Assembly: GCA_964563095.1 (NCBI GenBank)
Contig: CAZLVD010000001.1
Span: 122,494-176,885 of the forward strand
Direction: 5' to 3'
DNA from: an uncultured Rickettsiales bacterium
Lineage (GTDB): Bacteria > Pseudomonadota > Alphaproteobacteria > CAJXXZ01 > CAZLVD01
DNA length: 54,392 bases
Made by a program: the position numbers and the translations under genes. The notes beneath the pieces were generated by a model. It was not told the DNA's origin. It searched no databases and was given only the letters and a program-made list of their open reading frames with translations. How positions within the stretch are numbered: the stretch's first letter is position 1; every line of letters begins with the position of its first letter. Shown in pieces: positions 13,308 to 14,930 of this stretch.

Positions 13308-13847
13308 ATGAGAAATTTTTTAATTACTATGATGTGTATGTCGGTATTTGCCGTTAATAGAGTAACAGATATTTTATATATAAAAGAAGGTGAATTTTAT
13401 GTACAAGTAGAGAATAGTATGAATGAATATAGGGTATATCCAATACAGTTTTTCAATTTACAAGCACAAGCAATAGATATGGTGAGTATTCTCATGAATC
13501 AATGGTCCGATCGTTTATCTAATATGGATAGTAAAATTAAAGCATCTGAGAAAGTAGAAGAAGGACAAGATATACCTGATAATACTCAAATCAAACAAAA
13601 ACTTGCTGCATTACAGAAAATTTATGATACATATAGTGAGAATATTCAAAATAAGCAGATAGAATCACAATTAATAATGATTAGACATGGATTGTATATA
13701 TCTTCGCAAATTGATGCGGACTTAGTAAAAGATATTGAGAAAGATATATATGATGTGATAAATAATTTTCAAGTTGCGAGAGATTCATCTAATCAGCCTA
13801 TAGCTCCAAGATTTGAAACAATAGCTCCGATTGAAGATTTGGATTAA
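13308..13847 (+). CDS. Hypothetical exported protein (about 179 aa from Met 13308; ORF open from 13257)
   Basis: Leader MRNFLITMMCMSVFA. Carries the module EFYVQVENSMNEYRVYPIQFFNLQAQAIDMVSILMNQW, shared with 4443-5384 and 14376-14930. Confidence 0.5.
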   Translation: MRNFLITMMCMSVFAVNRVTDILYIKEGEFYVQVENSMNEYRVYPIQFFNLQAQAIDMVSILMNQWSDRLSNMDSKIKASEKVEEGQDIPDNTQIKQKLAALQKIYDTYSENIQNKQIESQLIMIRHGLYISSQIDADLVKDIEKDIYDVINNFQVARDSSNQPIAPRFETIAPIEDLD

Positions 13848-13955
13848 TGAGATTTATAAAATTATATAATTAAAAATGATTCGATGACACAAAAACATGA
13901 AAATAATAAAATAATAATTTTTTGACGATACAATAAAATATGCTAACATTGCCAT

Positions 13956-14351
13956 ATGAAAATAAAACTTTTTTTATATGTGTTGAATGTATTAAATGCT
14001 ACTTCTCCTACATATTTTGATATGTATATATCAGATAATCAGAAAATTACTGAGAAAACATGGATTGAGACAGTGCATACTGATATTATGGAGTATCTAA
14101 TATATGATCGTCAATATACAGCATATACAGAGCATATACAAACATTAATATTGACTACATTATGTGCATTTAAAACGTGGCTATATGAGCAATCGAATGC
14201 TGTATTTACAACTGCATGTATGATTTTGTATGTAAAATTATCAAAATGTTTTTCGTTTCTTGAAAATCATATACAGAGAAGTACCTTGATTAACAGTATA
14301 CAAAAAGCGTATATATCTGGATATAAGAAAACATTAACAGTATATTCATAA
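13956..14351 (+). CDS. Hypothetical small exported protein (131 aa), paralog-like to 4002-4406
   Basis: Leader MKIKLFLYVLNVLNA. Same size and same position as the 134-aa ORF, directly upstream of a SAP-leader ORF. Confidence 0.5.
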   Translation: MKIKLFLYVLNVLNATSPTYFDMYISDNQKITEKTWIETVHTDIMEYLIYDRQYTAYTEHIQTLILTTLCAFKTWLYEQSNAVFTTACMILYVKLSKCFSFLENHIQRSTLINSIQKAYISGYKKTLTVYS

Positions 14352-14375
14352 TTATATGATAACAATGATTGTATC

Positions 14376-14930
14376 ATGAAACAATTTTTATTATTTAGCG
14401 TTTTATTAGTTTCCGCACCAGGAATACAATCTAGATCTAATTCTAGTGATTCAATATACTCTGATGCAGATATATACAAGTCTATATATAGTACAAGTGT
14501 GCAGATTCTATCTCATGCAGCAACTCAAGATGCAGCTGCAGCAACTCCAGATGCAGCTGCGGATAATTTTTCTAAAGAATATGCGATACATATGAAGACA
14601 AGTGATACTTCAGAAGGAGAACAAGTTCAGCAAATGCAATATTATAATATTTCATCAGAGCAAGCAGCACATATTATTCAATGTATCTTAATATCATGGC
14701 ACCATATATATAGTAAACTAGAGCATGCTATGTTAGGATCTGCATCAGAAATCTCGGATAAATTACGAGACATTTTTTATAAGCCAAATACTATCACTCC
14801 TACTTCTGCTGATGATATAGCAAAATTACGAAAGATTGATGATATTCTTCAGAACATTACTAATCCAGATCTGAAGTTATTCTTCGGTCAAGCCATATTT
14901 CAAGGTATACATGCAATTTGCGCACATTAA
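14376..14930 (+). CDS. Hypothetical exported protein (184 aa), paralog-like to 4443-5384
   Basis: Leader MKQFLLFSVLLVSAPGIQS, then the Ser/Asp-rich RSNSSDSIYSDAD, then the module EYAIHMKT...QYYNISSEQAAHIIQCILISW. Confidence 0.55.
   Translation: MKQFLLFSVLLVSAPGIQSRSNSSDSIYSDADIYKSIYSTSVQILSHAATQDAAAATPDAAADNFSKEYAIHMKTSDTSEGEQVQQMQYYNISSEQAAHIIQCILISWHHIYSKLEHAMLGSASEISDKLRDIFYKPNTITPTSADDIAKLRKIDDILQNITNPDLKLFFGQAIFQGIHAICAH

Follow-up and report, generated by a model that had tools for sequence, protein, structure and literature searches.

Exported orphan proteins are common in reduced symbionts. Effectors of the type found in Liberibacter are ~100–250 amino acids (aa) long, carry classical signal peptides, lack recognisable domains and have a narrow taxonomic range, and they come from an alphaproteobacterium whose reduced genome shows no obvious secretion system dedicated to effectors. 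These Sec-delivered effectors (SDEs) have been described as small Sec-dependent effectors of a reduced bacterium (PMC7662370). Here we analyse three consecutive orphan genes, B1, B2 and B3, which lie between rpsQ (ribosomal protein S17) and gltX in an uncultured Rickettsiales bacterium (assembly GCA_964563095.1) and which we liken to the SDEs of ‘Candidatus Liberibacter asiaticus’ and of further bacteria that are reduced and confined to hosts. The window, meaning the whole stretch of DNA analysed, spans 54,392 nucleotides (nt) of contig CAZLVD010000001.1 (forward strand, positions 122,494–176,885), and coordinates are given from its first letter. No sequence or fold relationship connects B1–B3 with the Liberibacter effectors.

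Taken as a whole, the locus is best explained, with confidence slightly above even, as a set of lineage-restricted, fast-evolving exported proteins of the cell envelope or host interface. This explanation draws on the coding status of the three genes, on the conservation and rate of B1 in related genomes and on the leader-like N-termini.

Coding status of B1, B2 and B3

B1, B2 and B3 are real protein-coding genes. The three open reading frames (ORFs) stand one after another on the plus strand between S17 and gltX with the N-termini that the original prediction had quoted, and each is coding in its own frame. B1 (13308–13847) encodes a 179-aa exported orphan, as judged from its leader, and serves as the conserved anchor of this locus. 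B2 (13956–14351) encodes a 131-aa orphan, rich in Tyr, whose N-terminus is weakly leader-like, and B3 (14376–14930) a 184-aa orphan whose leader is the strongest among them; both were found in this genome only. A codon log-odds model trained on the 33 recognisable or conserved genes of the window gave in-frame scores of 0.41 (B1), 0.27 (B2) and 0.31 (B3), with the five other frames negative for each gene. The conserved genes themselves score 0.45 ± 0.13, with a minimum of 0.15 (leave-one-out, n = 33), and antisense shadow ORFs are recognisable under this model by the higher score of the opposite strand. Open frames of 131–184 codons are, moreover, very unlikely to arise by chance at the ~30% guanine-plus-cytosine (GC) content found throughout the window.

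B1–B3 lie in a single reading frame, and the same is true of the ORFs A1, A2 and A3 of a second cluster considered below. Reading either trio as a single gene broken by stops or recoding is ruled out because the spacers hold several stop codons of differing kinds, and B1–B3 are therefore separate genes. The B1 frame has an alternative start upstream at 13257, but the true start is 13308 (MRNFL...), as had been predicted, because the orthologues in the two closest relatives begin MMKIL... and align from residue 1. Within B3, Tandem Repeats Finder located a tandem duplication (14516–14560, plus strand; 21-nt unit, 2.1 copies, 95% matches), which codes for the Ala/Asp/Gln-rich stretch AATQDAAAATPDAAA.

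Conservation and evolutionary rate of B1

B1 is orthologous and syntenic in related genomes and evolves fast, and B2 and B3 are absent there. The two closest metagenomic relatives, L005 and L006, keep the gene order L5-L24-L14-S17, orphan, gltX-rpoA-S10-holC-S5-pheT, with one orphan gene only at the site between S17 and gltX. In both, this orphan is the positional orthologue of B1 (L005:2951–3715, 254 aa; L006:1031–1657, 208 aa), with BLASTP expectation values (E) of 4e-14 and 5e-13 and 25–27% identity over 156–170 residues. The 13 flanking genes are 63–96% identical among the same genomes, with S17 at 96% in L005 and L006 and the chi subunit at 67%, and B1 is therefore an extreme rate outlier. 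Neither B2 nor B3 gave a tblastn match in the loci of these relatives.

B1 and its two orthologues are joined by full-length similarity, a shared position, the leader, the motif NRV and a Trp. The 179-residue B1 alignment contains 33 invariant columns, nine of which fall among the first 19 residues, and the invariant positions include M1, L5, M8, C10, S12, F14, N17, R18, V19 and W66. The leader is the best-conserved part of the alignment; NRV, just past the predicted cleavage site, is invariant, and an IDxD motif is conserved. When a profile of the three orthologues was compared with 5.8 billion clusters, it found exactly these three proteins.

The GltX search recovered a small clade at 79, 70, 61 and 60% identity, followed by Alphaproteobacteria at ~40%, with P0014 a more distant relative at 45%. 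At L007:1370–2078 and L008:1–665 (GltX ~60% identical), the gap between S17 and gltX holds two other orphans each (96/97 aa and 141/115 aa). Leader-like N-termini occur in three of these four proteins, and the first ORF of the gap ends ...TKDV in both genomes. No similarity of these orphans was detected to B1–B3 nor, by BLASTP, to one another. In the distant GltX relatives L009–L011 and L013–L015, the arrangement of S17 beside gltX is lost. The GTDB species representatives contained no close genome, GltX patterns giving only matches of 33–34% identity in Bacillota. The B1–B3 locus is present at 100% identity on Logan contigs of runs SRR13608705 and SRR13608731, and a neighbouring run of that accession series is described as a long-read metagenome from soil (PMC12574318).

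N-terminal leaders

Signal-like leaders had been predicted for all three proteins, and all three were recovered, B2 marginally, by a home-made heuristic rather than a trained predictor, with 28 cytoplasmic proteins as controls. Each N-terminus has an n-region of charge +1 with one basic residue, followed from residue 3–5 by an uncharged hydrophobic 10-mer with a Kyte-Doolittle value of 2.20 (B1), 1.84 (B2) or 2.76 (B3), compared with 0.85 ± 0.86 and a maximum of 2.47 in the controls. Small residues occupy positions −3 and −1 of candidate cleavage sites (VFA↓V in B1, LNA↓T in B2 and IQS↓R in B3). The scan thereby placed B1, B2 and B3 among Sec signal peptides of the signal peptidase I (SPase I) type, and the leader of B1 corresponds to approximately residues 1–15 (13308–13352).

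In n-region charge, an uncharged core of 9–13 residues and small residues at −3/−1, the three resemble generic SPase I proteins of Gram-negatives, and the B1 leader is kept across orthologues, as in proteins with SPase I signal peptides. Such a peptide is a targeting feature and not a family, and it is uninformative on the function of B1–B3. On these grounds, B1–B3 are most likely exported over the inner membrane by Sec via cleavable N-terminal leaders.

Two other classes of exported protein were considered and rejected. SPase II lipoproteins carry a lipobox ([LVI][ASTVI][GAS]C) where the h-region ends, and B1–B3 lack one there; in B1 the residues before the conserved Cys10 are M-M or M-C rather than G/A/S and this Cys comes as early as position 10, and the leaders of B2 and B3 have no Cys. 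Assignment to type IV pilins or pseudopilins of type II secretion systems, whose class III leader has a short charged peptide, then G|F/M-T/S-L-x-E and a hydrophobic helix ~20 aa long, was dropped for want of a G-F-T-L-x-E-like motif in the N-termini and of any pilin match in Pfam.

Database searches and predicted structure

Profile libraries returned nothing for the three proteins: the best Pfam-A matches of B1–B3 reach 13–15 bits against cut-offs of 24–27, and the best NCBIfam matches, also 13–15 bits, are not above noise. An exhaustive HMMER comparison of B3 with 1.84 billion representative proteins found B3 itself and one spurious match, P0002 (20 stretches), which was rejected as a translated GC-rich tandem repeat. 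Searching the orphans against PDB sequences yielded only designed helical proteins.

AlphaFold2, given the three-sequence alignment, modelled B1 with a predicted local distance difference test (pLDDT) of 65.7 and a predicted template modelling score of 0.57, the helical part reaching pLDDT 85–92. The model consists of the leader, strands at residues 18–26, 29–35 and 41–47, helices at 58–81, 93–112, 118–133 and 137–153, and a disordered tail. The prediction for mature B1 is thus a small sheet of three strands and, after it, a bundle of four helices, without any recognisable relative; the best Foldseek match in the PDB had an E of 0.42. De novo designed helical bundles and repeat proteins align weakly with the helical part (profile E 2e-4 to 0.04, Foldseek E ~1.5), and these matches are driven by composition and helix content and concern artificial proteins, not homologues. 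A single-sequence AlphaFold2 model of B3, unreliable at pLDDT 46, ends in four helices, so that both models place four consecutive helices after a variable N-terminal part.

Relationship of B3 to B1

Smith-Waterman alignment of B1 with B3 gave z values of 4.4–4.6, with 0 of 500 and 1 of 2000 shuffles scoring as well, and in the 76-ORF database of the window the two proteins are reciprocal best phmmer matches (E 0.016 and 0.025). B3 also aligned with the L006 orthologue of B1 (z 3.4; 17 of 2000 shuffles), with KIDTDI placed on KIDDIL. Both alignments of B3 are collinear, Trp on Trp, and the two pairs are the only outliers among 27 comparisons.

Other results pull away from a common origin. The link between B1 and B3 becomes weaker once the B1 orthologues are added: a hidden Markov model (HMM) of the B1 family reaches B3 only at E 0.23, hhalign with the B1-family profile finds no B3 match, and the L005 orthologue aligns with B3 at z −0.16. 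A paralogue would nevertheless be expected near the edge of detection, because the orthologues of B1 are already down to 25% identity. We infer from these alignments that B3 may have originated by duplication; that it is a diverged tandem duplicate of B1 is plausible but unproven.

Interpretation and alternatives

Under the envelope or host-interface explanation that we favour, B1–B3 would be small, lineage-restricted proteins that undergo Sec export through cleavable leaders. B1 would be the ancestral resident of the gap between S17 and gltX, kept in the nearest relatives and evolving several-fold faster than each neighbour. B2 and B3 would have been added in this genome only, B3 probably through tandem duplication of B1 and a divergence so strong that little resemblance is left. 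By comparison with the Liberibacter SDEs, the proteins would most likely work in the periplasm, on the cell surface or in contact with a host. The bacterium would be reduced and probably dependent on that host, and selection on the proteins would be diversifying or relaxed. A PilB/GspE-PilC/GspF-type gene set for secretion or pili at 33197–36188, assigned by eye, was counted in favour of this explanation.

Several points weigh against this explanation. Export of B1–B3 is judged through the home-made heuristic. The hydrophobic core of B2 is short and within 1.2 standard deviations of the controls, and its leader is the weakest of the set. The B3 model is unreliable, as its pLDDT indicates, and that of B1 was built on just three sequences. 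Because the locus is 100% identical in the two other assemblies, these offer no population variation to show selection.

A bolder version would treat the gap between S17 and gltX as a birth-and-death hotspot, in which a diversifying exported family (B1 and B3) with a new three-strand-plus-four-helix fold, perhaps with B2 as partner, would serve host interaction by an alphaproteobacterium-like symbiont with a tiny genome. We hold this version to be doubtful.

B2 and B3 might instead be non-functional, either ORFs that arose recently and de novo or remnants in decay, within a spacer that has expanded, so that only B1 matters. Their absence from all relatives examined and from databases would fit, as would the fresh 21-nt tandem duplication inside B3 in a genome whose spacers commonly carry short tandem duplications, and their coding scores lie under the gene mean. 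Those scores are nonetheless within the range of conserved genes, with the other frames strongly negative, and stop-codon frequency at ~30% GC makes open frames of 131 and 184 codons very unlikely by chance. Both proteins also have leader-like N-termini, and 1 kb of junk seldom persists in a reduced genome. We therefore regard non-functional B2 and B3 as unlikely.

It is similarly improbable that B1, perhaps together with B2 and B3, represents extremely diverged housekeeping envelope proteins, for instance chaperones of the periplasm or subunits accessory to the Tol-Pal, Bam or Lpt machineries. Many housekeeping proteins of this genome are highly diverged and carry extensions, the position of B1 beside core genes is fixed in three genomes, and accessory factors of the envelope are typically small exported proteins that combine a sheet with helices. 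Yet neither sequence nor fold gave a Pfam, NCBIfam or PDB match even at permissive thresholds, and B1 evolves far faster than every core neighbour, including the poorly conserved chi subunit, which is unusual for a housekeeping protein.

The proposed shared module and Copy A

The original prediction went further than the locus itself. It held that B1, B3 and, twice over, A3 share a domain composed of a strand and a helix ending in Trp (four copies in three proteins), and that the two clusters may represent one secreted system twice over, each pairing a small partner (A2 or B2) with a large subunit (A3 or B3). Copy A occupies 3393–5384, between der and dnaJ, and comprises A1 (3393–3833), A2 (4002–4406) and A3 (4443–5384), all on the plus strand. 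The two clusters do share a layout, in that a leader-bearing ORF of ~131–134 aa is followed 24–36 nt on by a larger leader-bearing ORF (B2–B3, 24 nt; A2–A3, 36 nt). All six ORFs are orphans, and orthologues diverge so fast (25% identity) that true paralogues may escape sequence detection. Beyond the short spacers, however, nothing links the small ORF to the large one, and no small-plus-large pair occurs in L005 and L006, where the B1 gene stands alone at the site.

An HMM built from the four module instances recovers its own training sequences only. Scanning with module HMMs had been set beforehand as the test that could refute the family, and when one protein at a time was left out, the omitted copies ranked among shuffled sequences (505 of 1355, 1023 of 1395 and 1159 of 1161 among real and shuffled ORFs), with scores of −9.5 to 0 bits in a set of 1596 real and shuffled ORFs. 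In all-against-all BLASTP, phmmer and Smith-Waterman comparisons with shuffles, A3 showed no relationship to B1 or B3 (z < 1 for each), and A2 against B2 reached z 0.25. When hhalign compared the B1-family profile with every ORF, only leaders aligned, and the probability for the module proteins was at most 2.4%. A loose hydrophobic-helix-then-Trp pattern is generic, occurring in 16 of 76 ORFs, among them GltX, LeuRS, RpoA and EF-Tu, and W66 lies in the middle of helix 58–81 in the B1 model, not at a helix end. The two halves of A3 resemble one another weakly (z 2.5), and Copy A and Copy B have no DNA similarity.

The repeated strand-plus-Trp-helix module is thus not supported, nor is Copy A, lacking protein as well as DNA similarity, demonstrably related to B1–B3. 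Of the broader proposal, lineage specificity stands, since database searches were empty, and a secreted or periplasmic location is plausible, the leader being the best-conserved part of B1; the four-module expansion, the single secreted system in two copies and the small partner find no support in the HMM tests and comparisons. Given failed leave-one-out models, a generic motif and the missing pair in relatives, we consider the shared-module model very unlikely.

Copy A ORFs contain short tandem repeats (3400–3432, 3606–3661, 4064–4101 and 5241–5288), and an AAT/AAC run at 5323–5375 encodes 18 consecutive Asn at the C-terminus of A3. These repeats suggest slippage-driven evolution of the orphans.

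Genomic context

The left boundary of the B locus is rpsQ (12903–13148, minus strand; assigned by Pfam on the identical Logan contig), the first gene of the S17-L14-L24-L5 cluster, and the right boundary is gltX (14999–16357, plus strand), which is the synteny anchor. The divergent intergenic region between S17 and B1 (13149–13307) presumably carries promoters in both directions. Promoter-like sites at the locus were no commoner than in shuffles (14 versus 18.6 expected), the promoter and terminator scan found no terminators, none of the four starts examined at the locus is preceded by a Shine-Dalgarno-like motif, and Rfam and tRNA scans of the B1–B3 region gave no matches.

Ribosomal protein genes are scattered through the window (7039–7506, 11336–13148, 18364–18813, 19757–20392, 29137–30132 and 39654–40052) and are not grouped in S10-spc-alpha operons. 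S7, S10, S5 and S12 each stand alone, S17-L14-L24-L5 lies apart from L29 and L16, and S13-S11 lies apart from rpoA; this scattered order is conserved in L005 and L006. Several of the ribosomal proteins (S10, S5, S11 and L24) carry long N- or C-terminal extensions. The trigger factor homologue (45753–47576) has an N-terminal extension of ~170 aa, rich in Lys, Thr and Ala, with the His-rich patch HVHGEHCNHHHDKH, and a 21-nt tandem repeat lies in the same region (45875–45925). A Der/EngA-like GTPase (2019–3359) has ~70 aa of acidic, low-complexity sequence inserted where its two GTPase domains meet.

On the minus strand, a PilB/GspE-like ATPase (34542–36188) and a PilC/GspF-like platform protein (33197–34372) were assigned by eye from their translations. 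A 438-aa orphan (31801–33117, minus strand) adjoins the PilC/GspF-like gene, and a ComF-like gene lies at 30471–31175. Together, these genes suggest that a very reduced genome encodes a type IV pilus or a type II secretion-like system. The scattered, extended ribosomal genes and the PilB/PilC-type pair are consistent with a reduced, fast-evolving and probably host-associated bacterium, and the genomes of the lineage may be very small.

Many nearly perfect, recent tandem duplications of 22–80 nt occur, mostly in spacers (17908–18060, 19434–19582, 31116–31237, 11192–11243 and 6559–6602); the one at 31116–31237 lies immediately upstream of tRNA-Val and copies the 3′ end of the comF-like gene. At 50436–50579, a near-perfect 39-nt tandem repeat (3.7 copies, 99% matches) abuts tRNA-Pro (50583–50656) and gives rise to ORFs filled with the repeat on either strand. 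Positive coding scores were also obtained for orphan ORFs at 38667–39647, 42953–43681, 52388–52873, 53812–54366 (minus strand) and 28628–29053 (minus strand). Those at 42953–43681 and 52388–52873 have hydrophobic leader- or anchor-like N-termini, and by phmmer and hhalign none of the five resembles B1–B3.

Implications

The finding makes no long-standing question testable. It does carry a caution for work on AT-rich orphans, in which a visually convincing strand-plus-Trp-helix module failed leave-one-out testing. If the envelope or host-interface explanation is true, the locus would mark candidate envelope or host-interface proteins of a strongly reduced lineage seen only in metagenomes. Because B1 evolves fast yet keeps its leader and its position, it would be a reasonable first candidate in the search for host-interaction factors in this clade.

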